From assembly GCA_938074535.1 (NCBI GenBank), contig CALJER010000008.1:23523-87522 (forward strand): a stretch of DNA of 64,000 bases. Reading direction: 5' to 3'. The position numbers were made by a program, and so were the translations under genes. Below are positions 328-64,000 of the stretch, piece after piece; the first letter of the stretch is position 1, and each line of letters begins with the position of its first letter. The stretch is from an uncultured archaeon (lineage in GTDB: Archaea; Hadarchaeota; Hadarchaeia; Hadarchaeales; WYZ-LMO6). The notes under the pieces are model-generated. The model searched no databases. It saw only the letters and a list, made by a program, of their open reading frames with translations, and was not told where the DNA came from.

Positions 328-328
328 A

Positions 329-604: not shown

Positions 605-616
605 CCTAACACTCCT

Positions 617-2363: not shown

Positions 2364-2386
2364 AGCCTTCCCTTTTTCTTTTTTTG

Positions 2387-3247: not shown

Positions 3248-3253
3248 GCGGGC

Positions 3254-3412: not shown

Positions 3413-3430
3413 CCCTCTCCTCTTCCCGCA

Positions 3431-3440
3431 CCTTTTAACC
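3431..3440. promoter_or_regulatory. Possible shared TATA element (CCTTTTAACC) for the divergent leaderless genes Sec61-beta and the PIN/PhoH ATPase
   Basis: Near-palindromic AT core about 20-25 nt from ATG 3412 on the minus strand and from ATG 3464 on the plus strand. Confidence 0.4.
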
Positions 3441-3463
3441 CTTCCGGGAGGAATAGCAGTAAC

Positions 3464-17904: not shown

Positions 17905-18686
17905 CAGCTTCCCCCCACCTTCTGCCTGGCGAAGAGGGCCGCCCCGAGGGCCCCCACCAGCTGCGGGTCGAAGTCCAGCCTGAGGAGGGGGACCCCCAGC
18001 ATCTCCTCCAGGTACCTCACCACCCCCACGTTCTTCGCCACCCCTCCGGAGAGGACCACCTCCCTCTCCACCCCCATCCTCGAGGCCAGCGCCTTCACCC
18101 TCGCCGCCATGGCCTGATTCACACCCGCCGCCACATCCTCGGCGCTGGCACCCTCAGCCAGCTGGGAGAGGACCTCCGACTGGGCGTAGACCGCACACAC
18201 GTTGGTGATGGGTATGGGCCTCCTGGAGGAAAGGGAGAGCCTTCCCAGCTCCTCCACTCCCACTCCCAGCGTCTTGGCCATCAGCTCCAGGAACCTCCCC
18301 GTTCCCGCCGCGCACTTGTCGTTCATGACGAAGTTCAGCAGCCTTCCCTCCCCGTCCACCCTTATCACCTTGCAGTCCTGCCCCCCTATGTCTATCACCG
18401 TCCTCACGGAGGGAAGGAGCCAGTGGGCACCCTTTCCGTGGCAGGAGATCTCCGACACGTTCTCCCCCGCGAAAGGAATCCTCACCCTGCCGTAGCCCGT
18501 CCCCACGCAGTAGGCCACCTCCTCCCACCTCCTCCCCGCCTTCCTCAGCGCCTCCTCCATCACCTCCCTGGCCGAGAGCTCCGGTCTGGGTTTGACCCTC
18601 CTCACCTCGTGGGAGAGGATGCGCCCGTCCTCCAGCAGGACGGCCTTGGCGGTGAGGGAGCCCACGTCGCAGCCTGCCACCAGCAT
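17904..18686 (-). CDS. CoA-substrate-specific enzyme activase (HgdC/BcrA/BcrD family), copy 2
   Basis: MNDKCAAGTGRFLE and CAVYAQSEV motifs. Tandem paralog of copy 1; by eye the two differ by more than 50%. Confidence 0.8.
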   Translation of the reverse strand: MLVAGCDVGSLTAKAVLLEDGRILSHEVRRVKPRPELSAREVMEEALRKAGRRWEEVAYCVGTGYGRVRIPFAGENVSEISCHGKGAHWLLPSVRTVIDIGGQDCKVIRVDGEGRLLNFVMNDKCAAGTGRFLELMAKTLGVGVEELGRLSLSSRRPIPITNVCAVYAQSEVLSQLAEGASAEDVAAGVNQAMAARVKALASRMGVEREVVLSGGVAKNVGVVRYLEEMLGVPLLRLDFDPQLVGALGAALFARQKVGGS

Positions 18687-18687
18687 G

Positions 18688-20055: not shown

Positions 20056-20377
20056 CAGCCTCCCTCCTCTCGGCCAGCCTCCTCAGCTCCCTCTCCTCCA
20101 GCCTCGGGCGGAGGTAAATCGCGTACCCACCCTGGGTCTTCTCCACCATGAGCTTCCATCCGCCCTTCTCCCCCTCCTCCCTCTCCGACTGTCCTCTCAC
20201 CACCCTGTCCAGCATCTCCTCCATCCCCTCCAACAGCTCCCTGGGAAGTCTGGACCTGAAGTCGGGGCAGATCCTGGTGCTGGCGGGGTTCTCCTCGCTC
20301 CCCTTCAGCTGACACCTTATCCTCTCCCACTCCATCCACGCGGCCCAGAAGCAGTCACCGCACCTAACGGGGCTCAT
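20042..20377 (-). CDS. Small Cys-containing protein (C-x2-C-x14-C-x13-C) between the two HgdAB-like subunits
   Basis: MSPVRCGDCFWAAWMEWERIRC...RIC motif. Its ATG overlaps the upstream stop (ATGA at 20374-20377); its stop lies 14 nt inside the next gene. Confidence 0.45.
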   Translation of the reverse strand: MSPVRCGDCFWAAWMEWERIRCQLKGSEENPASTRICPDFRSRLPRELLEGMEEMLDRVVRGQSEREEGEKGGWKLMVEKTQGGYAIYLRPRLEERELRRLAERREAGGRG

Positions 20378-21507
20378 CTCCCCAGCCTCTCCAGGAAGGC
20401 CTGGATTCTGGTCCTGATCCTCCCCACCTCCGCCAGCGGGCCGTACTGCCTCTCCAGGAGCAGAGTGGGCACCCCCTCCTCCTCCAGCCTCCTGGCGAAG
20501 AGGGTGTTGTCTCCTCCATGCGTGTCGCAGAACTTCATGTGCTCCAGGACCACTCCTTCCACCCTCCATTCTTTGATGAGCCTCCTCAAAAAGTTGAGCT
20601 TCCTCTCGAACTCCCCATAGGTCCTGGCGCAGGGTACGTGGTAGTAGTACCTCCTCACCAGGGCCTCAAAGGGGTCCCCCCCCTCTTCCACCATGTCCAC
20701 GATGGACCTCATGCCGAAGCAGAGGGAGTCCGTGACCACCAGGCCCCCCTGCCCCTCTATCACCCTCACCAGCTCCGGATCGTCGTTCACGCTCCCCACG
20801 AGCATCAGCCTGGTTCCGGAGTACTCCTTTCCCCTCTCCTCCACTTCCTCCAGCGCTTCCTCCAGCAGGCGGTTGTAGACCTCCCTTCTCACAGCCGTGC
20901 TCGCCACGTGGAGGGCCAGGGCCTCCTGCCCGGAAACAGGGGGTCTCTCCCTCTTTCTCCTTTCGTTGAGCTCCAGGAGGAGCCTCCTCCCCCTGTTGTA
21001 CTCCCTGATGGCCTCCTCCAGCTTTTCGGGAGAGAGCTCCGTCCCGAAGTGCCCCTCCATGGCCTTCAAAAGGGAGAAGATCTCGCCCCGGTAGAACTCC
21101 AGCCCGTGCTCCGTGAGGGTGTGGGGGATCCCAAAGTAGTAGAAGAAGGGGGGGAGGTTCCCCGCCGCCTTCCAGCAGTCGTACATCCTCCTCACATGAT
21201 CGCAGGTGCGGGAGATCACGGCCCCATCCAGGAAGTCGTACCTTCCCTCCAGCACCAGCTGCAGGCAGCAGCGCGTGTAGCTGCAGTTGACGGGACCGTA
21301 CCAGGCGTCCGCCAGGGAGGTTCCTGAGCAACCCGTCCCCCTGATCCTGAAGGGAAGCATGCCCAGGGCGTGGACGAGCTCTTCCGGGAAGTAGCTGCAG
21401 GTGTAGCCCACGACCCTCCCTCCTCCCCTCTTCCACTCTTCCAGCAGGGGATTGGAGATCCCCGAGGAGACCCGCTCCAGGGCTTCTAGACTTCCCACTT
21501 CAAACAT
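20374..21507 (-). CDS. 2-hydroxyacyl-CoA dehydratase / BcrBC-like (HgdAB family) subunit A
   Basis: GYTCSYFPEEL...GTGCSG...CSYTRCC motifs of the HgdA/BcrB family. ATG 21507 (MFEVGSLEAL) preferred; ATG 21522 also possible. The upstream ORF extension was rejected. Confidence 0.75.
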   Translation of the reverse strand: MFEVGSLEALERVSSGISNPLLEEWKRGGGRVVGYTCSYFPEELVHALGMLPFRIRGTGCSGTSLADAWYGPVNCSYTRCCLQLVLEGRYDFLDGAVISRTCDHVRRMYDCWKAAGNLPPFFYYFGIPHTLTEHGLEFYRGEIFSLLKAMEGHFGTELSPEKLEEAIREYNRGRRLLLELNERRKRERPPVSGQEALALHVASTAVRREVYNRLLEEALEEVEERGKEYSGTRLMLVGSVNDDPELVRVIEGQGGLVVTDSLCFGMRSIVDMVEEGGDPFEALVRRYYYHVPCARTYGEFERKLNFLRRLIKEWRVEGVVLEHMKFCDTHGGDNTLFARRLEEEGVPTLLLERQYGPLAEVGRIRTRIQAFLERLGR

Positions 21508-21556
21508 GGTTCTTGCGGGCATAAATCTTTTTTTTTGAAGGGGCCAAGAAAAACCG
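21508..21556. promoter_or_regulatory. Divergent promoter region (CATAAATCTTTTTTTTT) between the HgdA-like operon and the saccharopine-DH-like operon
   Basis: AT-rich stretch 20-30 nt from both start codons. Confidence 0.4.
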
Positions 21557-22753
21557 ATGGGAGATAAGAAGGTGGTGGTCCTGGGAGGGGGCGGGGTGGT
21601 GGGAAGAACCGCCGTGAAGGACCTGGCCAAGAGCGGGGTCTTCTCGGAGGTGGTGGTGGCCGACAAGGAGGTGGAGAAGGCGAGGGAGCACCTGGAGGGA
21701 GTTCCCCGCCTCTCCTTCGTGAAGGCAGACCTCACGGAGTTGTCCATCCTCAGGGAGGTGATAAAGGGGGCGGACGTGGTTCTGAACACCGTAGGACCCT
21801 TTTACAAGTTCGGCCCCTTGCTCACGAGGGAGGCCATACGGACCGGGGTGAACTACGTGGACATCTGCGACGACTACGAGGCCACGCTGGAGCAGCTGAA
21901 GATGGACGAGGAGGCGAGGAAGAGGGGTGTGACCGTCCTCACGGGCATGGGCTCTTCACCCGGCGTGGCCAACGTGGTGGCCAAGTTCTGCTCCCAGTTG
22001 CTGGACCAGCCGGAGGAGATCCACATCTACCACATCCACGGGGGGGAGCCGGAAGAGGGGCCCGGGGTGATCTACCACCGCATCCACTACATGACGGGAA
22101 AAATCCCCATGCTGAAGGATGGGAAGATGGTGTACTTCGGGTTCTTCAGTGAGGAAGGGAGAAGGGAAATAGAGGAAGTGGACTTCTACGAGCCCATAGG
22201 GGTGGCGAAGGTTTACCCCTACCCGCACCCGGAGACCATCACCCTCCCCAGGTACATCCCGGGCCTCAGGAAGGTCACCAACAAAGGGTCCGTCCTACCC
22301 CTGGAATACTACGAACTGCTGCGGGAGGCCGTGAAGATGGGTTTAGCCGATGAGAAGCCCCTGAAGGTGGGAGGGGCCTCCGTGGCCCCCATCGACTTCC
22401 TGGTCTCCTTCGTCCTCTCCAAGAGGAAGGAATATGCGAGCAGGCTGCCTGAACCCGTGGGTTGCCTGAAGATCGTGGTGAGGGGGAGAAAGGGGGGAAA
22501 GAGGATGGAGTACAGGTTCGCCATCCCCTCCAGGGGTGCGGGTATGGGGGAGGGAACGGCCATTCCCGCCTCGGTGGGCACGCAGATGGTGGCCAGAGGG
22601 GAGATCGAGGAGAAAGGGGTCCTCCCCCCGGAGGCCTGCGTGGATCCCATGAAATTCTTCGAGGAGGCGAGGAGCAGGGAGGGGATGGGCGGCGTCAGGA
22701 TCATCTTCGAGAGCGTGGACGAGGAGGGGAGGGTGACCAGCATACCCCTTTGA
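21557..22753 (+). CDS. Saccharopine dehydrogenase-like NAD(P)-binding oxidoreductase
   Basis: VVVLGGGGVVGRTAVKDL Rossmann motif and Sacchrp_dh-like layout. Confidence 0.7.
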   Translation: MGDKKVVVLGGGGVVGRTAVKDLAKSGVFSEVVVADKEVEKAREHLEGVPRLSFVKADLTELSILREVIKGADVVLNTVGPFYKFGPLLTREAIRTGVNYVDICDDYEATLEQLKMDEEARKRGVTVLTGMGSSPGVANVVAKFCSQLLDQPEEIHIYHIHGGEPEEGPGVIYHRIHYMTGKIPMLKDGKMVYFGFFSEEGRREIEEVDFYEPIGVAKVYPYPHPETITLPRYIPGLRKVTNKGSVLPLEYYELLREAVKMGLADEKPLKVGGASVAPIDFLVSFVLSKRKEYASRLPEPVGCLKIVVRGRKGGKRMEYRFAIPSRGAGMGEGTAIPASVGTQMVARGEIEEKGVLPPEACVDPMKFFEEARSREGMGGVRIIFESVDEEGRVTSIPL

Positions 22754-22790
22754 CCCAAGCCTTTTTTTCCTCCAGAAAACCACTCTTTTG

Positions 22791-24089
22791 ATGTTCAAGT
22801 GGAGGGAAAAGGAGTACGAGGAGCTTGAGGCTCAGCCCGAGGCCCTCCCCGAGGGGGTGGATCCCGAGGAATACGTCATCGCCACCTACTTCCTCTCCCT
22901 CCCCTCCGCCCTGGATCCCTGGGAGGTGGCTAGGGCCCTGGCCATAGAGCAGAGCACGGGAACCTGGGTGCCCGTTCCCGGGGAGACCCCCGAGGTGAGG
23001 AAGAAGCACGTGGCCAAAGTGGTGGGACTGTACGAGGCCCCCTATCCGGAAGTCCTCTCCCCCACGGAGGCCAGGGAGAGGAACTATGTGGTGCAAATCG
23101 CCTTCCCGCAGGTGAATTTCGGGAAACAGATCCCCATGCTCCTCTCCACGGTGGCGGGGAACCTGATGTGCTGGGAGAAGATCAAGCTCCTGGACCTCCG
23201 CTTCCCCAAGAGCTTCGTGGAGGGCTTCGGGGGCCCCAAGTTCGGGATAGAGGGGATAAGGAAGCTGCTGGGAGTGGAGGAGAGGCCCCTGATCAACAAC
23301 ATGATCAAGCCCTGCACCGGCTTTACACCCGACGTGGGTGCGAGGCTGGCCTACGAAGCGGCGGTAGGGGGAGTGGACATGATCAAGGACGACGAGCTAC
23401 TGGGCAACCCCTCCTTTAACCCCATAGAGGAGAGGGTGCCGAAGTACATGGAGGCTCTGGACAGGGCGAACAGGGAAAAGGGGGAAAAGACCCTCTACAC
23501 GGTCAACATCACGGACGAGGCCTCCAGGGTGATGGAGAACGCGGACAGGGCCATAGAGCTTGGGGCGAACGCCCTCATGATCAACTATCTCACCGCCGGA
23601 ATCTCCCTGCTCAGGGAGCTGGCGGAGGATCCAAGCATCAACGTCCCCATCCTGGCCCACATGGACTTCTCCGGCACCATGTACGTCTCCCCCTACTCAG
23701 GCCTCTCCTCCTCGCTCCTGCTGGGGAAGCTGCCCAGGCTGGCGGGTGCCGACATCTTGGTCTACCCAGCACCCTACGGGAAGGCCCCCTTCATGAAGGA
23801 GAGATACGTGAGGATAGCCCACCACCTGACCTTTCCCCTCTACCACCTCCGCCCCACCTTCCCCATGCCCAGCGGGGGGATCACGCCCTCCATGGTGCCC
23901 GAGGTGGTGGGGGATCTGGGGAAGGACATCGTGATAGGGACGGGGGGAGGGATCCACGCCCACCCCATGGGTCCCAGGGCCGGAGCCAGGGCCTTCAGGC
24001 TGGCGGTGGAGGCGGTGATGAGGGGGATGAGCCTGCAGGAGATGGCCAAGGAGCACGAGGAGCTGAGGGTGGCCCTGCAGATGGGCTGA
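22791..24089 (+). CDS. RuBisCO-like protein (RLP, form IV-like); probably not a carboxylase
   Basis: RuBisCO large-subunit fold motifs are present: IKP (K175), GGVDMIKDDE (K201/D203/E204). K177 is replaced by Cys (MIKPCTG) and the HIHR region reads LAHMD (R295 lost), judged by eye. ATG at 22791. Confidence 0.8.
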   Translation: MFKWREKEYEELEAQPEALPEGVDPEEYVIATYFLSLPSALDPWEVARALAIEQSTGTWVPVPGETPEVRKKHVAKVVGLYEAPYPEVLSPTEARERNYVVQIAFPQVNFGKQIPMLLSTVAGNLMCWEKIKLLDLRFPKSFVEGFGGPKFGIEGIRKLLGVEERPLINNMIKPCTGFTPDVGARLAYEAAVGGVDMIKDDELLGNPSFNPIEERVPKYMEALDRANREKGEKTLYTVNITDEASRVMENADRAIELGANALMINYLTAGISLLRELAEDPSINVPILAHMDFSGTMYVSPYSGLSSSLLLGKLPRLAGADILVYPAPYGKAPFMKERYVRIAHHLTFPLYHLRPTFPMPSGGITPSMVPEVVGDLGKDIVIGTGGGIHAHPMGPRAGARAFRLAVEAVMRGMSLQEMAKEHEELRVALQMG

Positions 24090-45649: not shown

Positions 45650-45989
45650 CTATCGTTTCCCCGGTCGAACCCTGGGGCCCATCGCCTCCTCCACCGCCTT
45701 CCTGAGCATTCCTTCGGGTGGACAGGGGTAGCCCCTCCCCCTGCACAAGTAGATCCTGCACCCGAGCCTGCCTTCCCCCTTTCTGATCCCCTCTTGAACA
45801 TCCCTCCCGTTTATCAGCACGGTGGGGGAGCCCTGGAACCCGTGCTTCCTAGCCTTTTCTTCCGTAAAGAGCTTCCACCTCCGCCTCCGCGCCCAGCCCC
45901 TTCATAACCTCCCTGAGCACCTCCCTGGTCTTCAAGAGGCTAGGGCAATCCGGTATGTACAAAACTTGAACCCCTATCTTCCCATCCAC
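45650..45989 (-). pseudogene. Thioredoxin_3/MJ0307-like small redox protein, frameshifted; monothiol CPS instead of CPxC; C-terminal Cys-rich extension
   Basis: Frame A (GTG 45989 to TAG 45849): MDGKIGVQVLYIPDCPSLLKTREVLREVMKGLGAEAEVEALYGRKG*. Frame B continues: ...EEKARKHGFQGSPTVLINGRDVQEG...GCRIYLCRGRGYPCPPEGMLRKAVEEAMG* (stop at 45650). Concatenated, the two frames match the Thioredoxin_3 fold. Shift site near cttt/aaaa at about 45852-45875. Confidence 0.45.
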
Positions 45990-52906: not shown

Positions 52907-54439
<1,533 letters not shown>

Positions 54440-54501
54440 CGCCCTCCGGCTCTTACCGGACCCCGGCGACCACGCCTGAAAGAGGGGAACCCCGCAAGCC
54501 T

Positions 54502-55029
54502 TCAGCGGAGGGGCTCCACACCCTCCAAATCGCTCAATTCCCCCCTAGTCTCCTTCGCCCAGACCGCCCTCACCCTCATCCCGATGTGCACTTCTTTCGG
54601 ATCCGCACCTATCAACAGAGTGCCCAAGTTGGAATCGGCGCCGTCGAATTTGACGAAAACGGGAATAATAACCTCATCCTCCTGGATGAGGCCCTGCTCC
54701 ACGGGATCCATCCCCAGCACCTTGATCTTCCCCCTTTTGATGGGCGGGCTTATGATGAAGCAGGTGACGGTACCTACGTCGGAAACCACCACCCTACCCT
54801 CCATCTTCCTGTGGCACCTCCCGCACAGGTTCCTGGGAGGCACTATCACCTTCCCGCATCCGAAGCACAGAGAGCCCACCAGCTTCCTCTGTTTTAAACC
54901 CTCCACGAATTCTTCGAGGAGTCTGTTGGCCTTCCAGGTGTAGGCCCCTATGTTCCACTCCCCCTCCACGCCCAGGGTTTCCGGTCTTTCCTCTTTGAGG
55001 TATGGCATCCCCTCACCTCGGAGAGTCAC
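54502..55029 (-). CDS. DUF35 (Zn-ribbon + OB-fold) protein, partner of thiolase-like enzymes
   Basis: CFGCGKVIVPPRNLCGRC rubredoxin-like ribbon followed by an OB fold. Confidence 0.75.
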   Translation of the reverse strand: MTLRGEGMPYLKEERPETLGVEGEWNIGAYTWKANRLLEEFVEGLKQRKLVGSLCFGCGKVIVPPRNLCGRCHRKMEGRVVVSDVGTVTCFIISPPIKRGKIKVLGMDPVEQGLIQEDEVIIPVFVKFDGADSNLGTLLIGADPKEVHIGMRVRAVWAKETRGELSDLEGVEPLR

Positions 55030-56254
55030 CCAGCACCGTCACCGTGGTGTAGTTCGTCACTCCCCCCCATCCGTGGGCCACGGCGTTCCTGACCTCCTTC
55101 GGGACCTGGTGCTCCTCGGCCTTTCCCATCACCTGCAGAGCGGCTTCCAGGATCCTCTGTAAGGCGGAAGACCCTATGGCGTTCGTGGCGAGAACCCCCC
55201 CGGAGGGATCCGTCGGCATTCTGCCGTCGATCTCCATTTCCCCCTCCTCGAGGGCCACCCAGGCCTTTCCCTCGTCAAAAAGCCCCAGCCTCTCGGCGAA
55301 GATGAGCTCCTGACTTGGGAAGGGCTGGTAAATCTCAGCCACATCTATCTCCCTCTTCGGATCCGTTATTCCCGCCATCCTGTAGGCCTTCATCGCGGAA
55401 ACCCTGCACCCCATCTGCTCGGAGGCGTCAAGGATGCCCACTCCCCCGTAGCTCTCGCTCATGAGCTGGTTTTCCTCGTCGGAGTAGGACGCAAGCCCCT
55501 TAACCCAGGCTTTGTCCTCTTTCTTCTTTGCGATATCCTCGGCCGCCACCACAATGGCAGAAGCGCCATCACTCGCGGGGCAGATGTGTCCGAACCTGAA
55601 GGGATACGCCACCATCTCGGTCTTTGCTATGTCCTCCGGGGTGCACCCTGGCCACTGAAGGTGTGCGTACTTGTTCTTCGCGGCGTTTCTCCTGCTCTTT
55701 GCAGCCACCATGTCGAAGTGCTCGATTCTACACCCGGATCTGTGCATGTAGAACATCGCCTGGTAGACGGCGACCCCCGCAGCGGCCCCCACGACGGTGG
55801 TGGCCACCAGACTCTTGAGGTTCATCCCGTAGTTGAAGGCATGGAAGAAATTGGCAAGAGCCACGTGCAGGAGACCGGTGGTTGCCCCGGGCTCTTTGCT
55901 GTCGGAATGCTTCTCCCAGGCCACGGCCAGGACTTTGTCGTACATCCCCGAGGCCACCGCATAGATGGCCCCCTGCCCCACCGATCCCCCTGTGGTTCCA
56001 CCCGTGGCTATTCTCATAACGGGCTTTCCCGGGGCGCCTATCCAATCCCCAATCCACTGGTCTGGCTGGGCGACGCCGCCGAACCCCTGCATGTTCCCCA
56101 CCACGATGGCGTCAATCTCCTCTGGGGTTACCTGGGCATCCTCCATGGCCCTCCAGGCTGCCTCTTCAATCATTTCAGGCAGGCTGACATCCCTTCTCTT
56201 GCTCGAATGCTTGGTCTGTCCGCATCCTATTATGGCGACATTCCTGAACATCAT
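55013..56254 (-). CDS. Thiolase-like protein (SCP-x/Ltp-type fold) lacking the nucleophilic Cys and the C-terminal His/Cys catalytic residues
   Basis: Thiolase-fold glycine-rich motifs. At the N-x2-C-x-SG position it reads RIATGGTTGG. The GHP position reads TNAIGSS and the GMC position reads GWGGVTNY, judged by eye. Confidence 0.7.
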   Translation of the reverse strand: MMFRNVAIIGCGQTKHSSKRRDVSLPEMIEEAAWRAMEDAQVTPEEIDAIVVGNMQGFGGVAQPDQWIGDWIGAPGKPVMRIATGGTTGGSVGQGAIYAVASGMYDKVLAVAWEKHSDSKEPGATTGLLHVALANFFHAFNYGMNLKSLVATTVVGAAAGVAVYQAMFYMHRSGCRIEHFDMVAAKSRRNAAKNKYAHLQWPGCTPEDIAKTEMVAYPFRFGHICPASDGASAIVVAAEDIAKKKEDKAWVKGLASYSDEENQLMSESYGGVGILDASEQMGCRVSAMKAYRMAGITDPKREIDVAEIYQPFPSQELIFAERLGLFDEGKAWVALEEGEMEIDGRMPTDPSGGVLATNAIGSSALQRILEAALQVMGKAEEHQVPKEVRNAVAHGWGGVTNYTTVTVLGDSPR

Positions 56255-57396
56255 CCCTCACCCCCAAGAATGAAAACCCAGTTCTTCTGGGCACACATCC
56301 CGAACTGGCCGTGAGCCAGGGCCCTTCGCACACCCGGAATCTGGTACTCACCCGCCTCGCCCCTTATTTGCTTGGCGGCCTCCACCATCCTCACCAGGCC
56401 CGTCGCGCAAACCGGATCGGCCGCGAGAGCCCCACCGCTGGGGTTAACGGGGATTTCACCGCCCTTCTCCGTTGCCCCCCTCTCCAAGAGGACCTTGCCC
56501 TTGCCCCTCCTGCAGAGGCCCAGGGCCTCGTATATCATCAGCTCCTCGTGGGCAAATTTTTCCGAAACTTCGAAGACGTCAAGCTCCGCGTAGGGATCCC
56601 TTATCCCCGCCATCTCATAGGCATCCTTTGCCGCCTTACGCAGGGAATCAAGCTCGAGGAGGTTCCTGTCACGGAGGTAGAAGTCCTGGCAGACGCCTAC
56701 CCCCTCTATCCAGACGGGAGTGTCGGTGATCTCCTTTGCCTTTTCTTCCGAGGCCAGAACCAGGGCACAGGCGCCGTCGCTGATGGGGGACATCATCAAC
56801 TCCCTTATGGGATGGTAATAAAGTTTGGAGCCGAGCACCTCCTCCACAGTCAGGTCCGGCATCCTCCTCTGGGCAAAGGGGTTCTTCGCGGCATTCGAGA
56901 GATTCTTGACGGAAACCATCGCGATTTCCTCTTCGGAGACTCCGTAGGAGGACATGTACATCCTAGCTTGGATAGCAGCGGCTGAAACATCGTTGAGAAC
57001 TCCTATCTGCCTGTCAAAGAGGGGATCCAAAGTGTAGAAGGATACTTGGTGTGGGTTGAAGGTCGACCCCTGAGTGTGGGCCTCCACCAGAGCTACGTCA
57101 TGTACACCGGAGAGAATCCTCATGAAAGCGTACCAAGCCGCGGAGGTACCATCTTCCTCTGTTTTCGATTCGTCCTTCAGGTAGGCCCCCACCGCCATGC
57201 TGAGAAAAACGCTTGAAATGGTCCTGCCGTCCAGAAAGTCCGTGGAGGCCGTGACCACGGTATCCACCTCCCCGCGCGTGATTCCCGCGTGCGAGAGGGC
57301 CTCTTTGACAACCTCAAAAACCATGTCCTCCCTGGTCTTTTGCATATCGAACTGATGTTGGGTCTGAGCGTAGCCCACTATGGCGACTCTCCTCAA
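56251..57396 (-). CDS. Thiolase-like protein (SCP-x/Ltp-type) lacking the N-terminal nucleophilic Cys
   Basis: No Cys in the first about 110 residues; the C-terminal GMCAQ and NPSGG motifs are retained. Confidence 0.7.
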   Translation of the reverse strand: MRRVAIVGYAQTQHQFDMQKTREDMVFEVVKEALSHAGITRGEVDTVVTASTDFLDGRTISSVFLSMAVGAYLKDESKTEEDGTSAAWYAFMRILSGVHDVALVEAHTQGSTFNPHQVSFYTLDPLFDRQIGVLNDVSAAAIQARMYMSSYGVSEEEIAMVSVKNLSNAAKNPFAQRRMPDLTVEEVLGSKLYYHPIRELMMSPISDGACALVLASEEKAKEITDTPVWIEGVGVCQDFYLRDRNLLELDSLRKAAKDAYEMAGIRDPYAELDVFEVSEKFAHEELMIYEALGLCRRGKGKVLLERGATEKGGEIPVNPSGGALAADPVCATGLVRMVEAAKQIRGEAGEYQIPGVRRALAHGQFGMCAQKNWVFILGGEG

Positions 57397-57400
57397 AGGC

Positions 57401-57877
57401 TCACCTCGAGGGTTTGAAGTATTCTATGTCCGCCAGCTCGCCTCTGGTTGCCTCTCTCCATTTCGGCTCCACTTCCATTCCCTCCCTCACCCCCTCGGGG
57501 TCTATCTCTCCAATCGGCATGAAGATCGTGGAATCGGCTCCTTCCAGCTTTATGGCCCCTATCACCCTTGGTTTTTCCAGGTCCACAAAATTCCCCTCCC
57601 CATCCAGCCCAACATAGGCCGTGGTGTAACCGACCAGAACCCCCCTTCCGGAAAGCTCTACCAAGTTTTTCTCCCCAAGCTTGGTCAAGCATTTTCCACA
57701 CCTCGACCTGGGCGGCACGTAGGTGTACCCACAGCTGGGGCACTTCGCCCCCAGAAGTTTCTTTTCGGCGAGTGACTTTATGAATCTCTCCATCAGAAAG
57801 CCCGTGGACCACTTGAACCGTGCAACGAAAGGCAGACCCTTTACTCGAACTATCCCTTCCCTCTCCAAATGCAACAA
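57401..57877 (-). CDS. DUF35 (Zn-ribbon + OB-fold) protein
   Basis: CPSCGYTYVPPRSRCGKC ribbon plus OB fold. Confidence 0.75.
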   Translation of the reverse strand: MLHLEREGIVRVKGLPFVARFKWSTGFLMERFIKSLAEKKLLGAKCPSCGYTYVPPRSRCGKCLTKLGEKNLVELSGRGVLVGYTTAYVGLDGEGNFVDLEKPRVIGAIKLEGADSTIFMPIGEIDPEGVREGMEVEPKWREATRGELADIEYFKPSR

Positions 57878-57965
57878 AAAAAGTCGCCTAACCCCTTTAA
57901 TAAGCCTTTCGGAAGCCGGCGGTCCAAGAGCTATTTAAGCCCCAACACGGAGAGCTGTTTGGGGA
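57878..57965. promoter_or_regulatory. Divergent promoter region with two TATA-like boxes (CTTTAATAAG, GCTATTTAAG)
   Basis: AT boxes about 25-35 nt from the acyl-CoA synthetase ATG and about 40 nt from the DUF35 start. Confidence 0.4.
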
Positions 57966-59975
57966 ATGGTCTCAGATTCTTTCTCCAGGTACAGACAAAA
58001 GTACTCAGACGGCAACAGAAGAAACAACACTTGGGGCGCCAGACTTGAGATGCTCGCCCACGTGATCCCGGACAGGAGCGCCTTCATCCAAGGAGAGAGG
58101 GAAGTGACTTGGGGGCACTTCAACGAGCGAGTTAACATGTTGGCAAACGCGTTTTTGGACCTCGGGATAAAAAAGGAAGAGAGGGTGGCCATAGTGGGCT
58201 TCAACTGCATTGAGTGGATGGAAACTTACTTCGCCGCTTCCAAGATAGGGGCCGTGCCGGTTAATGTGAACCCCAGGTTCGTTCCGGAGGAGGTCAGGTA
58301 CATCCTCGAGAACTCGGACTCGGCGGCGGTGGTTCTGGAAGGCGAATTCCTCGAAACCGTAGAAAAGGCCTGCCGGGGTCTCTCCTCGGTGAGGCACTGC
58401 ATCGTTTGGGAAGGGAGTCCCCCAGAGGGGATGCTGAGCTATGAAGAACTTCTAAAAAACCGCCCCCCCACCGAACCCGAGCTTGGGTGGGAGGTGACCA
58501 ACGAAGATTTCTGCTTTCTCTTTTACACGGGAGGAACGACCGGATATCCTAAGGGAACCGTGTGGGATTATGAAAGCAGGGTGAGGGGCTTGGATATGCT
58601 GCTTTATCACGCCATGACGCCCCTTCTGGAAAATCTGGCCAAGATGCCGGAAGGTTCATACGTTGGAACCATAAACACCCTTATCCCGCCCGAAGCAGCT
58701 GAATTCTTGCTGCCCACTTTTCAAACACCTCCCGAGTTCGAACCATGGCTGGAGCTAATCAAAACTCTGTACCCTCCCGGGTTTGAGCCCGAGGCTGAAA
58801 AGCTCACGCGATCCCTCGTGGAACTTCTCCGGTCAGTACCGGAGCCGGTAAGGGAAAAAATGATGCGGCTGATGAACACGCCGGCAGAAGAACGCGGCAC
58901 CACGCAGGAAATCTTCCGCGATCCAGCCGTCGTACACTTTTTGAAGGAAACCTTCAGAGTGCTTCTCGGCACACCGCTCGCTTACCTGCTCAACGGCTCG
59001 AGGGTAAGAATTCTGATTGCCGCACCTTTGTTCCACGGTGCAGCCTATGAAGCCAATTTTGCGTACATCGGCACTTCCGGTGCCACAAGCGTTTACCTCA
59101 CCTCCCATCGCTTTAACCCGAGAGAACTTTGGGAAACTGCGGAGAGGAGAAAAGTTAATTATATCCTCATAGTGGGGGACGCCTTTGCCATTCCCATGGC
59201 CGAGGAGCTGGAAAGAAGGAGATACGATCTCGGCTCGCTAGCGGGCATCATCTCATCCGGAGTCACCTGGTCCCCCAAAATCAAGAAAAAGCTGCTCGCA
59301 CACATGCCCAGAGGCCTGGCGCTGGACGAACTGGGGACTACGGAGTTCAGCGGTGCCCACTCCCACATCTCCACTCCTGCGGATGAAGAGATACCTGACC
59401 TCAGAATAAAAATCTCTTCGAACGGGGCCTATCCCTGCCGGGTCGTCGATCCGGAAACGTGCGCAGACACCAAGCCTGGAGAGAGGGGGGAACTCATTTA
59501 CGGAGGCTATATGGCCCTGGGATACTGGAAGGATCCGGAAAGAACCGCCAAATATTTCAGGTGGATAGACGGCAGACGCTGGTTCTTCACCGGGGATGAA
59601 GGAATTGTCGATGAGGACGGATACTTTCATTTCATAGGGAGGGGTGCTCTCGTGATCAACACCGGCGGAGAAAAAGTCTATCCTGAAGAAGTTGAAGAAA
59701 CCATCAAAACACATCCCAAGGTCAGGGATGCTATTGTGACGGGGGTTCCGGATGAAAAGTGGGGTGAGGCTGTCACGGCCCTCGTGGAGCTGAAGGTTGG
59801 AGAAGAGGCAAAAGCGGAAGAAATAGTGGAGTTCTGCAGGGGAAGGCTGGCGGGATACAAAAAACCAAGGCATGTGATCTTCGTGGAGAAAATTCCCAGA
59901 TCCGCCAGCGGAAAAATAGAGAGGGGGGAGATAAAGAAAATGGCGGAAAAAATACTTAAATCTGGGAAGTCCTAA
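57966..59975 (+). CDS. AMP-forming acyl-CoA synthetase / fatty-acid-CoA ligase
   Basis: YTGGTTGYPKG AMP-binding motif; YGGYMALGYW, GDEG and KxPRxxSGKI C-terminal motifs. Confidence 0.8.
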   Translation: MVSDSFSRYRQKYSDGNRRNNTWGARLEMLAHVIPDRSAFIQGEREVTWGHFNERVNMLANAFLDLGIKKEERVAIVGFNCIEWMETYFAASKIGAVPVNVNPRFVPEEVRYILENSDSAAVVLEGEFLETVEKACRGLSSVRHCIVWEGSPPEGMLSYEELLKNRPPTEPELGWEVTNEDFCFLFYTGGTTGYPKGTVWDYESRVRGLDMLLYHAMTPLLENLAKMPEGSYVGTINTLIPPEAAEFLLPTFQTPPEFEPWLELIKTLYPPGFEPEAEKLTRSLVELLRSVPEPVREKMMRLMNTPAEERGTTQEIFRDPAVVHFLKETFRVLLGTPLAYLLNGSRVRILIAAPLFHGAAYEANFAYIGTSGATSVYLTSHRFNPRELWETAERRKVNYILIVGDAFAIPMAEELERRRYDLGSLAGIISSGVTWSPKIKKKLLAHMPRGLALDELGTTEFSGAHSHISTPADEEIPDLRIKISSNGAYPCRVVDPETCADTKPGERGELIYGGYMALGYWKDPERTAKYFRWIDGRRWFFTGDEGIVDEDGYFHFIGRGALVINTGGEKVYPEEVEETIKTHPKVRDAIVTGVPDEKWGEAVTALVELKVGEEAKAEEIVEFCRGRLAGYKKPRHVIFVEKIPRSASGKIERGEIKKMAEKILKSGKS

Positions 59976-59982
59976 ATACTGC

Positions 59983-61206
59983 GTGAACTTTGAACTCACG
60001 GAAGAGCAATCGATATTCAGAAAAACCCTTCGGGAGTTTCTGGACAAAGAAATTTCCCCCATCGCGGACAAAAGGGACAGAAAGGGGCCCCTCACAAAGG
60101 AAGAGGTAATAGGATTTTACAAAAAGTTCAAGGAGATAGGACTGGGCTTCGACCCGGCGACGGCGAGAGTTTGGCTGAAGGACCCAATGTTCTTTGGGAT
60201 TGCCGCGGAAGAGATAAGTCGCGTCTGGGCCAGCCTGTTCGCGGTTTGGGCGTACCAGATCTTTGCCTCCCTTGCTCCCCTAGCTTCTGAGGAAAGCGCG
60301 GAAAGGTTGGCTTCTAAACTGGAGAGGGCAGAGCTCGTCGGCTGCATGGCCGTGACCGAGCCAGGAGCCGGCTCCGACACCTCCAAACTCCAGACCACTG
60401 CGACCCTGGAAGGAGATCATTATGTCATCCAGGGAAGAAAGTGCTGGATAACCAACGCTCCCATAGCCGACGTGGCTCTGGTCGCGGCAACCGAAAAGGA
60501 TACTGGAATGCAGAACTTTTTCTTCATCGATCGGGAAGTTTCCCCCTTCGAAACGACCGAATTACATAAAATAGGTTGGAGAGCCGCGCCCACGGGCGAG
60601 ATGTTTTTTGATAACTGCCGGGTACCCAAGGAGAACGCTTTAACGGAGATGCTCTCCAAAGCCTTCACGGAGAGGGAGGAGATGAGGCCCCCCCTCTTCG
60701 ACCCAGAATCCGGGATAATGAAGTTGGCCACGAAAATTAAACCCCTGAGCGCCATCTTTTGCTTCATGCGGACGGGGATGGCGCTGCAGGCGACAGGGAT
60801 TTCGCAGGCGGCTCTGGACGCCTCGATGAAATACGCAAAGGAGAGAACTCAGTTCGGCAAACCTATCGGGAAGTTCCAGCTCGTTCAGGAGCTACTTTAT
60901 GAAATGACCGCCATAACGGAGTCCTCACGCCTTCTCGCATACCGGGCTTTGGATGTAGCGTGGAGGGGAGACCCCGAGGCGAGAAAGTGGTCTTCTTTGG
61001 CCAAATGTTACGCCTGTGAGGGCTGCATCAAAGTGACTTACAATGCGATACAGCTCCACGGCGGGATAGGTCTCTCGGAGGAACTTCCGCTGGAGAGATA
61101 CTTCCGGGATGCCAGGATAATGACCATCGGTGACGGCACCACCGAAATTCAAAAAATGATCGTGGGGCGCGAACTCCTGGGCAAGGGATTCTCGGCCTAC
61201 GCCTAG
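59983..61206 (+). CDS. Acyl-CoA dehydrogenase
   Basis: MNFELTEEQ N-terminus, the TEPGAGSD motif and the C-terminal QLHGGIG motif. GTG start. Confidence 0.9.
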   Translation: MNFELTEEQSIFRKTLREFLDKEISPIADKRDRKGPLTKEEVIGFYKKFKEIGLGFDPATARVWLKDPMFFGIAAEEISRVWASLFAVWAYQIFASLAPLASEESAERLASKLERAELVGCMAVTEPGAGSDTSKLQTTATLEGDHYVIQGRKCWITNAPIADVALVAATEKDTGMQNFFFIDREVSPFETTELHKIGWRAAPTGEMFFDNCRVPKENALTEMLSKAFTEREEMRPPLFDPESGIMKLATKIKPLSAIFCFMRTGMALQATGISQAALDASMKYAKERTQFGKPIGKFQLVQELLYEMTAITESSRLLAYRALDVAWRGDPEARKWSSLAKCYACEGCIKVTYNAIQLHGGIGLSEELPLERYFRDARIMTIGDGTTEIQKMIVGRELLGKGFSAYA

Positions 61207-61219
61207 AAGCATCACCCGT

Positions 61220-62140
61220 TCATTTGCTGGACGGTCGGGGCAGGCTGAAAAAGAAAGTCCCTTCCCTTTTCACCACCTTTACCCTTCTTTCATTCTGCAG
61301 TTTAACGAGGTGGGCCAGGACAGAATTGTATGTAAAATACGGAAATCCCCCCTCCGGATAGACCGAGTTGACGAGCTCCGAAAGGTCTTTCTCACCCTCC
61401 CCCAGAATTTCCAGCAACTTTTGTTCCGTCCTGAATTTTTGCTGAAGGATCCCGTCTATTCTCTTGTGGACCTCCCCCACCTCCCCACCATGTGAAAGAA
61501 AGGCCTTGTCTATCCTCAGCTTTTTTAGACGCTGGAGCGATTCCAAGAATTCCTCCAGGCTGCCCTGTAGGCACCCTACGAAGGGCGTCCCCCTGACCGT
61601 GATCATGTCCCCGGCGAATATGGTGCGGCTCTCCCCTTCGTAAAGACAAATGTGCCCCGGTGCATGACCGGGCGTGTGAAGAACTTTTAGGGAGAGGTCA
61701 GCCGCTCCAATGGAGTCTCCTTCCCTCAATCTCATGTCGACCTTTGCCGTCTTCACTTTCTCGTAAATGGAAGCTCGCATTCTGGCATGATCCGCGATTA
61801 TGCCAGGCATCTCGCTCAGCACTTCCTCTGGTGGGAGCTGTTTTTTCATGTCCTCTATCAAAGGCGCGGCTACTTCATGCGCCGCTATCTTAACCCCGGC
61901 TCTCTCCTTTATGGAGGCGTTCCCACCGAAATGGTCGATATGCTCATGGGTGTTCACGATCATGGAGACGTCGCTCAAATCGAACCCTATTTCCTCCAAT
62001 TGAGAGGAGAGTTCTCCCACCGATTCCTCATATCCGCTGTCTATCAAAACCGGCGTTTCGCTCTCTACTAAGAAGGCATTTACCCTCTGCAGACCCGGGA
62101 AGCTTGGCTCGAGCGATATCGTGTGTACGCGCAGCCCCAT
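61220..62140 (-). CDS. MBL-fold metallo-hydrolase with C-terminal winged-helix-like domain (paralog of 1264..2217)
   Basis: HEHIDHFGG motif and the same two-domain layout as the first MBL gene. Confidence 0.8.
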   Translation of the reverse strand: MGLRVHTISLEPSFPGLQRVNAFLVESETPVLIDSGYEESVGELSSQLEEIGFDLSDVSMIVNTHEHIDHFGGNASIKERAGVKIAAHEVAAPLIEDMKKQLPPEEVLSEMPGIIADHARMRASIYEKVKTAKVDMRLREGDSIGAADLSLKVLHTPGHAPGHICLYEGESRTIFAGDMITVRGTPFVGCLQGSLEEFLESLQRLKKLRIDKAFLSHGGEVGEVHKRIDGILQQKFRTEQKLLEILGEGEKDLSELVNSVYPEGGFPYFTYNSVLAHLVKLQNERRVKVVKREGTFFFSLPRPSSK

Positions 62141-62232
62141 CTCGGACTCACCACTTTTCTTCTCACCGCTACTTAAATTTGCGGACAGGATCGGGAAGAA
62201 AAGCTTTTTATACTGCGGGGCCCGGGAAAAAT

Positions 62233-63309
62233 GTGATAAAAACCAGACTTTGTGACCTCCTGGAAATAAAACACCCCATCATCCAAGGGGGCATGGGGCC
62301 CTTCCAAACGAACAAGCTAGCAGTTGCGGTTGCAAACGCCGGAGCGCTCGGGGTTATAAGCACCAGCGGAATCGTGCTCAAGAGCATGGGCGTGGATCTA
62401 GGCCCCCTTGCACCCGAAGGGGGTGACCCCTACGAGGTGTTGAGAAGAATCATCCACCAAACCGTGGAAGCCACGGAAGAGCACGGAAAAATCGGAATAA
62501 ACGTGATGGTCTCGGCCGAAATGATGGACGCTGCGAGGGAGCTCGTACGGGCCGCCGTCGACGCCAGGGGCGAGAACCCCTCGGTCCAAAAAAAGCTGAA
62601 GGCGATAATCACCTCGGCGGGTGACCCTCTGCCCTGGACCGACGTGATAAAGCCCTCCGGCCTCACATGGCTGCACGTAGTTCCCTCGGTTCGCGCGGCC
62701 AAAAGGTGTGAAAAGGCGGGAGTAGACGTGATAATAGCCTCGGGACAAGAGGGAGGGGGACACACCGCTTGGGAGCCGGTTCACTCGATGGTTTTGATCC
62801 CAGCTGTCGTCGAGGCCGTCAAAACTCCAGTGGTAGGGGCGGGAGGATTCGCGGACGGGGCTTCCCTGGTAGCGGCTTTGGCCCTGGGGGCTGTGGGAGT
62901 CCAGATGGGTACAAGATTCGTAGCGACCAAGGAAGCCGACTTCGTGCAGATGTGGAAGGAAAGAATAGTGAAAAGTGGGGAAAGAGACACGATCATCGCA
63001 AGGGGTTTTGTGGGACCCTTGAGGTATCTGAAGAATAAGGCCTCCGTCGAACTCGCTGAACAGACGCTGGAAAAAATTCCCAACCTGTTTTTGGGGCGTC
63101 CGGACGTCTCCCTGGATCCCGAAATCCTCAGCAAAGAGCTTGAGGGAACCATGGCCCTCCTGGGGGATGATGATGAGAGGGCCCTGTTTTACGGCGGGGA
63201 GGTCGCGGGGAGGATATCCGACATACCCACCGCCAGGGAACTCATTGAGAGGATAGTGAGAGAAGCGGAAGAAATTTTGAGGGAAATGCCAAAAAAATTC
63301 CTGAGATAG
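62233..63309 (+). CDS. Nitronate monooxygenase / FabK-like FMN-dependent enoyl reductase family
   Basis: IKHPIIQGGMGPF and the ASGQEGGGH motif. GTG start at 62233 with TATA CTTTTTATAC at about 62200-62209. Confidence 0.8.
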   Translation: MIKTRLCDLLEIKHPIIQGGMGPFQTNKLAVAVANAGALGVISTSGIVLKSMGVDLGPLAPEGGDPYEVLRRIIHQTVEATEEHGKIGINVMVSAEMMDAARELVRAAVDARGENPSVQKKLKAIITSAGDPLPWTDVIKPSGLTWLHVVPSVRAAKRCEKAGVDVIIASGQEGGGHTAWEPVHSMVLIPAVVEAVKTPVVGAGGFADGASLVAALALGAVGVQMGTRFVATKEADFVQMWKERIVKSGERDTIIARGFVGPLRYLKNKASVELAEQTLEKIPNLFLGRPDVSLDPEILSKELEGTMALLGDDDERALFYGGEVAGRISDIPTARELIERIVREAEEILREMPKKFLR

Positions 63310-63429
63310 ACGGGGCAGGATACTCGGCTACCCACGTCTGGTCCATCCGGCTCGACGCCGATTCGAGAGCGGATGCTGGCAGGATGGTTCCGTAGAAATG
63401 CTTATACGCTTCCCCTGCAGGATTTTTTG

Positions 63430-64000
63430 ATGGAGAAACTGATCATCACCGCGGCAGTGACCGGGGGGGAGTTTGTTTCCAAGCTGCAAACCGAATATGT
63501 TCCCTGCACTGTGGACGAAATAGTTGAGGAAGTTATCAGGTGCAGGAAGGCGGGCGCCTCGGTGGTTCACCTGCATGCCAAAGATCCCGAAACCGGCAGA
63601 CCCCATCCGGATCCCAATTCAGTTTTTCCGGAATACATCAGAAGAATAAGGGAAAGCGAGGCTTCGGACATCATAATCAATGTGACTACGGGTGGGGGAA
63701 GGCCCCTTCCTAGAGAGATGGCCGAGCTGTTCGGTATCGAGCAAAAGTACACCCCAGAGGAGTATGAGAGGATGGTGGACAAGTGGATGGAGGAGCGAAT
63801 GAAGTTCGGTCAAGAGATGTCCTCGCTCAACATGGGATCGATAAACATCTGGGAGGACATGGGGCTGGAGCCCCTGAGGGACTTCGTGTTCAGCAACCCC
63901 ATCTCCAGAATCGAGCGATGGGCAAAATACATGTACGAGAACAACGTAAAACCAGAACTCGAGATTTACGACACGGGCATGATAAACACGGCCAAAGCCT
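63430..64000 (+). CDS. BKACE-family beta-keto acid cleavage enzyme (3-keto-5-aminohexanoate cleavage enzyme-like, DUF849); 3'-truncated by the window end
   Basis: MEKLIITAAVTGGE...VVHLHAKDPETG signature of the Kce/BKACE TIM barrel. Confidence 0.75.
   Translation, partial: MEKLIITAAVTGGEFVSKLQTEYVPCTVDEIVEEVIRCRKAGASVVHLHAKDPETGRPHPDPNSVFPEYIRRIRESEASDIIINVTTGGGRPLPREMAELFGIEQKYTPEEYERMVDKWMEERMKFGQEMSSLNMGSINIWEDMGLEPLRDFVFSNPISRIERWAKYMYENNVKPELEIYDTGMINTAKA

Follow-up and report, generated by a model that had tools for sequence, protein, structure and literature searches.

A lower-GC metabolic island behind purH in a Hadarchaeales archaeon and its unit of thiolase-fold and DUF35 genes without thiolase catalytic residues

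The window analyzed here, a 64,000-nt stretch of DNA from an uncultured archaeon, carries ordinary archaeal genes of uniform composition over its first 54 kb; just behind purH, the guanine-plus-cytosine (GC) content falls and genes of coenzyme A (CoA)-thioester metabolism begin. The question raised by this locus is whether the last 9.5 kb are foreign to the genome that carries them and, if so, how old the acquisition is and what the acquired genes may do. All nine genes in this part (54.5-64 kb) are metabolic according to Pfam (Table 1): two genes for DUF35 proteins (DUF35a and DUF35b), two for thiolase-fold proteins (thlA and thlB), and genes for an AMP (adenosine monophosphate)-forming acyl-CoA ligase, an acyl-CoA dehydrogenase (ACAD), an MBL-fold metallo-hydrolase, a FabK/NMO-family flavin mononucleotide (FMN) oxidoreductase (NMO), and a beta-keto acid cleavage enzyme (BKACE). 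Every gene named in a preliminary description of the window was confirmed by Pfam, but the DUF35 and thiolase-like genes that it counted as occurring twice form one four-gene operon and not two separate pairs. Based on the results presented below, the DNA from 54,445 onward, up to 64,000 or beyond, is likely to be a flexible genomic island with a foreign source of lower GC; it lies ~13 nt after the purH stop codon of a Hadarchaeales archaeon of ~63% GC. The host is assigned to this order because a search with ribosomal protein S7 gave Candidatus Hadarchaeales and Hadesarchaea as the top matches, at 93% identity and then at no more than 77%.

The composition of the last 9.5 kb sets it apart from the rest of the window. 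Genes were called with a codon log-odds caller, since greedy longest-open-reading-frame calling gave wrong-frame open reading frames (ORFs) in the high-GC part (the caller missed one gene, at 20374-21789), and 49 core genes were compared with the nine island genes lying after 54,450. In sliding windows of 2 kb, the GC content is 0.60-0.68 until ~54 kb and 0.53-0.56 from ~57 kb to the window end. The mean GC of the genes is 0.636 (standard deviation (SD) 0.023) in the core and 0.554 in the island, and the GC content at third codon positions (GC3) is 0.866 (SD 0.040) versus 0.680 (Mann-Whitney p = 1.3e-6), the per-gene GC3 z-scores of the island genes ranging from -2.5 to -6.0 relative to the core; the GC content at first codon positions (GC1) is shifted as well. 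Similarly, the log-likelihood of synonymous codons under the core model splits core from island genes (p = 1.8e-6), and the tetranucleotide correlation with the core, 0.88-0.96 elsewhere, is down to 0.82, 0.71, and 0.64 in the final three 3-kb windows. No native gene in the upstream 54 kb has an island-like composition. The lower-GC island that had been placed at about 54.5 kb is thus confirmed by sliding-window GC, GC3, codon usage, and tetranucleotides, being distinguishable from the core at p ~1e-6, with its left edge at 54,445-54,453. The amino-acid contrast drawn at the same time survives in part. Amino-acid usage does differ between core and island (chi-square p = 4e-16), with Ile (x1.48), Asn (x1.27), Lys (x1.22), and Phe (x1.15) raised in the island and Arg (x0.68), Leu (x0.73), and Val (x0.85) lowered; however, Tyr is nearly flat (x1.06), and Glu, Gly, and Pro show no difference (0.93-0.99).

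Inside the island, GC3 falls into two tiers, 0.66-0.77 in the operon of the four DUF35 and thl genes (54.5-57.9 kb) and 0.63-0.68 in the other genes. Two related loci in other assemblies, L132 and L045 (L-numbers, from L001 to L140, label the comparison loci and contigs), repeat the same relative per-gene pattern, and so the tiers appear to be a property of the genes themselves. An explanation of the pattern as a GC gradient produced by amelioration from the boundary was rejected for the same reason.

The left edge of the island can be placed by comparison with close relatives, which were found by a PurH search followed by gene-context look-ups; five related lineages with the same pur gene order were obtained. 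Over eight concatenated core proteins, the identity to the window is 0.90 for L125, 0.85 for L130, 0.84 for L128, and 0.71 for L135, and that between L130 and L133 is 0.88. The closest relatives, L125/L126, whose core proteins are ~90% identical to those of the window and whose GC content is the same 63%, have no island. In these and in L127-129, purH is followed by the genes of CoA-transferase subunits A and B and then by guaB, the subunit A gene beginning 17-27 nt past purH; in L130/L131 (the same as L046/L047), BKACE and then CoA-transferase A/B follow; in L133/L134, BKACE and then guaB; and in L135/L136, unrelated genes. In blastn alignments, the window is colinear with L125 (86.9% nucleotide identity) up to 54452 and with L046/L130 (84.4%) up to 54444, and the latter match picks up again at 63429, the base before the BKACE start. 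Relative to L046, therefore, 8,984 bp (window 54445-63428) stand in place of a 31-bp spacer. Because L125 and the more distant L128, an outgroup, share the same junction between purH and the CoA-transferase genes, this junction looks ancestral and not like a deletion scar. Across six close lineages, the slot between purH and guaB holds at least four gene contents (CoA-transferase only, BKACE plus CoA-transferase, BKACE only, and island plus BKACE), and it appears to be a local hot spot for the gain and loss of acetoacetate- and CoA-related genes.

At the other end, the gene that occupies this slot in relatives, BKACE, has a composition of its own in the window. Its GC3 is 0.68 there, next to a purH at 0.85, versus 0.95 in L046/L130 and 0.87 in L133, where BKACE equals purH in GC3. 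When the 190-residue fragment is placed in a neighbour-joining tree, L130 and L133 group with 94% bootstrap support, and the window groups with L045 with 68%. The composition clearly assigns BKACE to the island, and the tree is suggestive of the same; the island thus extends as far as 64,000 or further, with its right end lying outside the window.

The island is also present elsewhere. A search with thlB returned a match of 94% annotated as Candidatus Hadarchaeales, locus L132, in which the island genes have the same order and orientation, with nucleotide identities of 81.6% over window 54570-62143 and 79.4% over 62227-63290 and amino-acid identities of 78-94%. L132 carries additional genes (within 1-4061): a glyoxalase/VOC-family gene lies between those of MBL and NMO, and NMO is followed by a 739-residue hydantoinase-B (acetone-carboxylase-like) gene in the place that BKACE takes in the window. 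The two copies of the island thus do not have the same cargo. The short contigs L139 and L140, which come from other read sets and are 99.95% identical to L132, cross the left junction into the 3' end of purH, and their insertion point and alignment breakpoint are the same as those of the window, ~13-15 nt past the purH stop, which the window has at 54,439. Their purH fragment has a GC3 of 0.85 and is 96% identical to the purH of L125 but only 90% identical to that of the window, so that the island-bearing L132/L139 lineage appears to be the sister of the island-free L125. The island would thus be a presence/absence polymorphism among very close relatives and not unique to this genome. L132 (51% GC over 11.7 kb) was also considered as a low-GC, donor-type genome; this was rejected, since L139/L140, from the same population, run into a GC-rich purH. 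In that purH fragment (the equivalent of window ~54090-54439), the two read sets agree in three deletions: one of 2 nt in a G-run, which shifts the reading frame, one of 3 nt, and another of 2 nt by which the stop codon is lost. The fragment represents either a purH pseudogene beside the island or a shared assembly error, and if the lesions are real, that genome needs another purH copy.

More distant versions of the gene set have orders that differ from that of the window. In L045, a metagenome contig of 47% GC, the same set is rearranged, with 64-90% amino-acid identity; a remnant of ~290 bp at L045 6395-6685 matches the 3' end of ACAD (window 60830-61157), and the ACAD gene has therefore been lost there. 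Archaeoglobus sp. JdFR-41 (L001) likewise has a rearranged set, at 46-80% identity. The four-gene core alone (DUF35a, thlA, thlB, and DUF35b), which is also seen in L132, L045, and L001, occurs in a Deltaproteobacteria genome and in another bacterial metagenome-assembled genome (MAG) (L137/L138), with 79-81% identity for thlA and thlB, and the cassette is common to archaea and bacteria at ~80% identity. In searches with NMO, the thiolase-fold proteins, and BKACE, homologs were at 63-67% in Dehalococcoidia and 79-80% in Deltaproteobacteria. The taxonomic comparison of core and island genes that the preliminary description called for gave a divided answer. Core S7 and island thlB both match Candidatus Hadarchaeales first, and so core and island genes point to the same order; on the other hand, thlB is 79-80% identical to the Deltaproteobacteria copies, far above the vertical expectation. 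The nearest core genome, L125, is without the island, and the nearest island copy is in its sister lineage, L132/L139, followed by L045, Archaeoglobus, and the bacteria.

Taken together, three independent observations support a horizontal origin of the island, as had been proposed: the composition is atypical, the empty site is intact in the closest relatives (L125-L129), and bacteria as well as an Archaeoglobus MAG have the genes together, in rearranged form, at high identity. An archaeal-bacterial protein identity of ~80% in itself implies lateral spread. The transfer visible at this locus appears to lie within the order Hadarchaeales, and it appears not to be recent. The composition-corrected distance at four-fold sites is 0.40 (95% confidence interval (CI) 0.36-0.44) between the core genes of the window and L125, 0.54 between those of the window and L130, and 0.62 (95% CI 0.55-0.69) between the island copies of the window and L132. 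Because the island distance exceeds the core distance of 0.40 and is not smaller, the possibility that the two host lineages exchanged the island recently was rejected; the copies probably date back at least to the time when their hosts split. At sites that differ in GC class between the copies, G/C is found in the window at 212 and in L132 at 154. The ~1.5-fold excess of the island distance is close to the contribution expected from additional AT-to-GC change in a GC-poor insert exposed to GC-biased pressure; two acquisitions from a pool that had already diverged would fit it as well. A plausible course of events is that the clade received the block horizontally from an organism of lower GC and has since kept it as a presence/absence polymorphism, with recombination in the core genes on either side moving or removing it, while its GC drifts slowly toward that of the host.

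In several respects, the locus resembles known prokaryotic genomic islands: the GC, codon, and oligonucleotide composition is atypical, a sharp edge lies beside a conserved core gene, the empty site is intact in the closest relatives, and the accessory, catabolic cargo recurs in unrelated taxa. It differs from them in that the insertion lies after purH with no tRNA target, integrase, or flanking repeat visible, in that the same site is occupied in two non-sister lineages, and in the at least four states of the slot among six close lineages. Horizontal gene transfer (HGT) of CoA and beta-oxidation genes in Hadarchaeota has already been described (PMC10811742); the sets of Ca. Cerberiarchaeaceae reported there belong to the same phylum and likewise comprise horizontally gained CoA-ester genes, including an AMP-forming ligase and an ACAD. 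Unlike these sets, the island has no enoyl-CoA hydratase, 3-hydroxyacyl-CoA dehydrogenase, or catalytically competent thiolase, and no Acr genes are found in the window.

Some observations weigh against a foreign island of the kind proposed. No integrase, transposase, excisionase, or tRNA was found at the left end or within 54.5-64 kb, which leaves the insertion mechanism without a visible agent. The closest island copies sit in the same order as the host, and the search named no donor outside Hadarchaeales. Furthermore, the presence of the island in the window and in the sister of the island-free L125 would require more than one event: either the island was lost in a way that restored an ancestral-looking junction, or it arrived twice at one site, by insertion or by recombinational transfer. 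An ancient vertical module, present in the ancestor of the clade and deleted in most lineages, with a composition that reflects weak expression or selection, would account for the identical site in two lineages, for nearest named homologs in Hadarchaeales, and for two copies about as diverged as their hosts once faster AT-to-GC change is allowed. Nevertheless, we regard it as improbable: GC3 lies 2.5-6 SD below that of the 49 native genes, with shifts in GC1, amino acids, and tetranucleotides as well; the junction shared by L125 and L128 would demand several exact deletions; the BKACE genes of L130 and L133 are host-like in GC3, in contrast to that of the window; and thlB is too close to its bacterial copies. 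There is a similarly small chance that the island is a site-specific integrative element that targets the 3' flank of purH and has its integrase and second attachment site beyond the window end. The shared insertion point in the window and L139/L140, whose hosts are not each other's closest relatives, would suit such an element, and independent integrations from a pool would explain why divergence is higher between the island copies than in the core. In the 9.5 kb, however, there is no mobility gene, tRNA, or repeat beside the nine metabolic genes, and L132 runs 1.9 kb further, into its hydantoinase gene, without a mobility gene; the excess divergence is, moreover, about that predicted from amelioration. 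Across 52-64 kb, no noteworthy direct or inverted repeat, insertion-sequence end, or att-like sequence was found, only short matches at chance level; the left junction is not repeated elsewhere within the window, and the only tRNAs in the window are at 28.9 and 42.6 kb.

A recent direct transfer into this genome from another phylum, Archaeoglobi or bacteria, is suggested by the homologs of NMO, of the thiolase-fold proteins, and of BKACE that Archaeoglobus sp. JdFR-41, Dehalococcoidia, and Deltaproteobacteria possess. However, Hadarchaeales have much closer, colinear copies in the same chromosomal position, the genes of L001, L045, L137, and L138 are ordered differently from those of the window, and the four-fold-site distance of 0.62 between the copies speaks for an old event; we consider such a transfer highly improbable. 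That a high-GC archaeal contig was wrongly joined to that of a lower-GC organism during assembly or binning is scarcely credible. It is true that the contig is metagenome-derived, that the composition steps sharply at an intergenic spacer, and that the L132 contig ends ~120 bp from the junction. However, the junction between purH and the island was assembled independently three times, since L139 and L140 have it from other read sets and a different lineage, and this makes a chimera very unlikely; in addition, no shared repeat at the junction could have misled the assembler, and after the island the window returns to BKACE, the gene found in this slot in relatives. A foreign, lower-GC island that entered the clade horizontally thus remains the reading that we prefer.

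Table 1. Positions and properties of the features at the left flank and in the island, in window coordinates.
Feature	Position	Strand	Properties
purH (AICARFT/IMPCHase)	52907..54439	+	Pfam PF01808, PF02142; GC3 0.85; native flank; 92% identical to L125 PurH
Left junction	54440..54501		Breakpoint near 54445-54453; ~13 nt past purH stop still relative-like, then island-specific spacer
DUF35b	54502..55008	-	Pfam zf-ChsH2 and OB_ChsH2_C; last gene of four-gene operon; GC3 0.76; 88% identical to L132
thlB	55013..56254	-	Pfam Thiolase_N and Thiolase_C_1; SCP2-type thiolase fold; 94% identical to L132, 79-80% to bacterial copies
thlA	56251..57396	-	Pfam match; second SCP2-type thiolase-fold paralog, ~32% identical to thlB
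DUF35a	57401..57877	-	Pfam OB_ChsH2_C and zf-ChsH2; PDB matches 3IRB, 6ESQ_E; first operon gene; exact start codon uncertain
Divergent intergenic region	57878..57965		TATA-like boxes 57896-57903 and 57932-57939 (consensus resemblance only), the latter upstream of ligase ATG at 57966
AMP-forming acyl-CoA ligase	57966..59975	+	669 residues; Pfam AMP-binding and AMP-binding_C in two stretches; 78% identical to L132
ACAD	59983..61206	+	All four ACAD Pfam domains; 88% identical to L132
MBL-fold metallo-hydrolase	61220..62140	-	Pfam Lactamase_B; nearest PDB 2ZO4, also LACTB2, glyoxalase II; 78% identical to L132
Divergent intergenic region	62141..62232		TATA-like boxes 62173-62180 (minus strand), upstream of MBL ATG at 62140, and 62205-62212, upstream of NMO GTG at 62233; L132 has extra glyoxalase-family gene here
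FabK/NMO-family FMN oxidoreductase	62233..63309	+	GTG start at 62233; Pfam NMO; homologs align from residue 1
BKACE	63430..64000	+	Pfam BKACE; first 190 codons, gene cut by window end; TATA-like box 63402-63406 upstream of ATG at 63430

The item of the island that most deserves attention is the four-gene unit. When the residues of thlA and thlB are read from alignments to the solved SCP2-type thiolases 6ESQ, 7YVY, 6HSJ, and 7PXP, the position of the nucleophilic Cys is occupied by Gly86 in thlB and by Thr in thlA. Similarly, the HDCF motif is replaced by Y309-Q-P-F in thlB and by S-E-K-F in thlA, and the G-H-P motif by T-N358-A and A-D-P, respectively. The replacement residues of thlB are invariant in 114 homologs, down to 52% identity (Pro311 in 113 of the 114), and the pattern of thlA holds in all orthologs recovered. 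Because the replacements are invariant across archaeal and bacterial homologs, thlA and thlB appear to form a conserved non-thiolase subfamily that is common to both domains. The two accompanying DUF35 proteins are free-standing zinc-ribbon and OB-fold proteins of 158-168 residues, each with a C4 zinc ribbon (C-x2-C-x10-C-x2-C). An alternative frame for DUF35a, the ORF at 57393-57812, was dropped, as it has no Pfam match.

Two groups of characterized systems invite comparison with this unit. With the archaeal AACT/HMGCS/DUF35 complex and with BbsAB, which provide the best PDB matches (6ESQ and 7PXP; E 1e-28 to 1e-36), the unit shares the SCP2-type thiolase fold and a DUF35 C4 zinc-ribbon/OB scaffold alongside; in contrast to them, neither island paralog has the nucleophilic Cys, the HDCF motif, or the His of GHP, and no 3-hydroxy-3-methylglutaryl-CoA (HMG-CoA) synthase is present. 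The scores against the NCBIfam models are 170-177 bits for the archaeal thiolase (cutoff 600) and 106-126 bits for BbsB (cutoff 750). The other comparison is with the steroid side-chain retro-aldolases Ltp2-ChsH2(DUF35) and Sal-Shy(DUF35) (PDB 6OK1; PMC12329534), in which the change from thiolase to retro-aldolase is marked by a Gly where the nucleophile would be and by a Tyr as the opening residue of the HDCF-equivalent motif. Here, too, an SCP2-thiolase fold is paired with a DUF35 partner, an ACAD is encoded nearby, and thlB has Gly86 in place of the nucleophilic Cys and Tyr309 as the first residue of the HDCF-equivalent motif. The remainder of this motif is different, Y-Q-P-F in thlB and not YDHF (Ltp2) or YDCY (Sal); the DUF35 proteins are not fused to a MaoC hydratase, and no MaoC domain was found in the genes of the island, L132, L137, or L138. 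In addition, two thiolase-fold paralogs and two DUF35 genes are present, the hosts are anaerobic archaea and bacteria without a steroid pathway, and the PDB match has an E value of only ~1e-17.

Since the second catalytic residue and the MaoC hydratase partner are absent, thlB is not assigned to the Ltp2/Sal family, and an aldolase-like action is put forward by analogy, as a hypothesis. As a tentative possibility, the four-gene unit may be a new heteromeric thiolase-fold enzyme that has abandoned thiolysis, a DUF35-scaffolded C-C lyase or aldolase acting on a non-steroid acyl-CoA, whose cassette has been exchanged between anaerobic archaea (Hadarchaeales and Archaeoglobi) and bacteria (Deltaproteobacteria and others) at ~80% protein identity. 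Among C-C cleavage reactions, a retro-aldol one, as in Ltp2 and Sal, would be favored because thlB combines Gly at the nucleophile position with an invariant Tyr for the His of HDCF.

What, then, might the island do as a whole? The preliminary description had suggested a beta-oxidation-like or C-C-cleavage module. The ligase and the acyl-CoA dehydrogenase of a beta-oxidation cluster are indeed present (Pfam AMP-binding and ACAD). However, no enoyl-CoA hydratase (ECH), MaoC, or 3-hydroxyacyl-CoA dehydrogenase (3HCDH) domain was detected by Pfam in any island gene or in the colinear L132 locus, and both thiolase-fold proteins are without the catalytic Cys/His/Cys. For these reasons, the island does not appear to be a beta-oxidation set, while C-C cleavage remains plausible. 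With low confidence, the island may be viewed as an acyl-CoA processing module in which the ligase would activate a carboxylic acid, ACAD and/or the FabK-like flavoenzyme would interconvert acyl- and enoyl-thioesters, and a heteromeric thlA/thlB complex on two DUF35 zinc-ribbon scaffolds would perform a non-thiolytic C-C cleavage. Enzymes of the BKACE family form acetoacetate from a beta-keto acid and acetyl-CoA. In the island, BKACE would convert a beta-keto acid and acetyl-CoA to acetoacetate and an acyl-CoA, and the acetoacetate could be activated by the neighbouring native CoA-transferase or, in L045, by an acetoacetate-CoA ligase that adjoins the module instead. Genes that activate acetoacetate are indeed found near BKACE, as CoA-transferase A/B in the slot of the relatives and in three unrelated loci (L070, L072, and L073), and it appears that the island landed beside functionally related native genes.

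This functional model has its difficulties. It seems incomplete, for the island encodes no hydratase that could make the 3-hydroxyacyl-CoA needed by an aldolase. Pro311 of thlB stands at the position of the essential Cys of Sal and of the His that, together with Tyr344, completes the catalytic residues of Ltp2, and thlA has none of the aldolase hallmarks. Moreover, in the NCBIfam profile comparison, no island protein reaches a curated cutoff. The BKACE fragment matches the Pfam family well (144 bits against a gathering score of 24.8, with 190-209 residues available), and it shares with Kce of lysine fermentation and with the triacetate/3,5-dioxohexanoate acetoacetate-lyase of anaerobic phloroglucinol degradation the BKACE domain and adjoining acetoacetate-activating genes. 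Unlike these characterized enzymes, its 190 residues, the gene being cut by the window end, remain below all NCBIfam equivalog cutoffs (114-115 bits for the best ones, the Kce, dioxohexanoate, and oxoadipate subfamilies, versus 382-430), and no genes of lysine fermentation or phloroglucinol degradation lie nearby.

As for the remaining island proteins, the ligase is similar to fatty-acyl and aryl-CoA ligases except for ~135 residues inserted into its N-terminal domain (residues ~210-345), so that PDB matches cover only residues 19-209 and 345-660. The insertion matches no solved ligase and is kept in the L132 protein, which is also of 669 residues. The nearest PDB entry to the NMO protein is FabK 7L00 (E = 7e-46), one of the FabK-type FMN enoyl reductases, and the score against the NCBIfam FabK model is 204 bits, with a cutoff of 453. 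The MBL protein is generic by its PDB matches. The TATA boxes that had been described as flanking the island genes are present as TATA-like boxes ~20-40 nt ahead of the start codons of the ligase, NMO, MBL, and BKACE, where they were read from the sequence by resemblance only.

The upstream 54 kb contain the rpoH-rpoB-rpoA'-rpoA'' genes with ribosomal protein genes, a complete pur/folD block that ends with purH, nrdDG together with a putative form III RuBisCO, and a 2-hydroxyacyl-CoA-dehydratase-like set. This last set, on the minus strand within 16425-21789, comprises two HGD-D-type subunits (18688-20055 and ~20374-21500) and two BcrAD/BadFG ATPases (17119-18686). It represents a 2-hydroxyacyl-CoA-dehydratase or benzoyl-CoA-reductase-like radical enzyme, and its composition is fully native; CoA-ester chemistry native to the host is thus already encoded near the island. 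The RuBisCO large-subunit homolog (22788-24089), which adjoins a saccharopine-dehydrogenase-like gene and an FGGY kinase gene and is also of native composition, is presumably an archaeal form III enzyme of nucleotide salvage. A thioredoxin-like DUF2703 gene that lies between purE and purQ (~45671-45977, minus strand) is a pseudogene in the window, with a frameshift, an 18-residue deletion, and the loss of both CxxC motifs; the gene is intact in L125 and L127-129 and missing from L130. Finally, L127-129 (GCA_038867475.1 and GCA_038736355.1) have a GC content of 55% over 21 kb of core genes and a purH GC3 of 0.68, while their relatives are at 63-67%; genomic GC has therefore shifted strongly within the clade.

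The phenomenon itself is an ordinary one, a strain-variable metabolic island in an uncultivated archaeal order of the subsurface and of hot springs. Its value lies in offering a dated example of gene flow inside Hadarchaeales in which the empty, filled, and intermediate states of the site have all been sampled, and this is useful for reconstructing how members of the order acquire CoA-ester metabolism. The locus also carries a warning for annotation. Judged from their active-site residues, genes called "thiolase" or "acetyl-CoA acetyltransferase" in this unit should not be able to act as thiolases; they are part of a tightly conserved and widely transferred four-gene unit. If that unit is indeed a new aldolase-type C-C lyase, metabolic reconstructions of Hadarchaeota, Archaeoglobi, and syntrophic bacteria in which it is taken for the final step of beta-oxidation would be wrong at that point.

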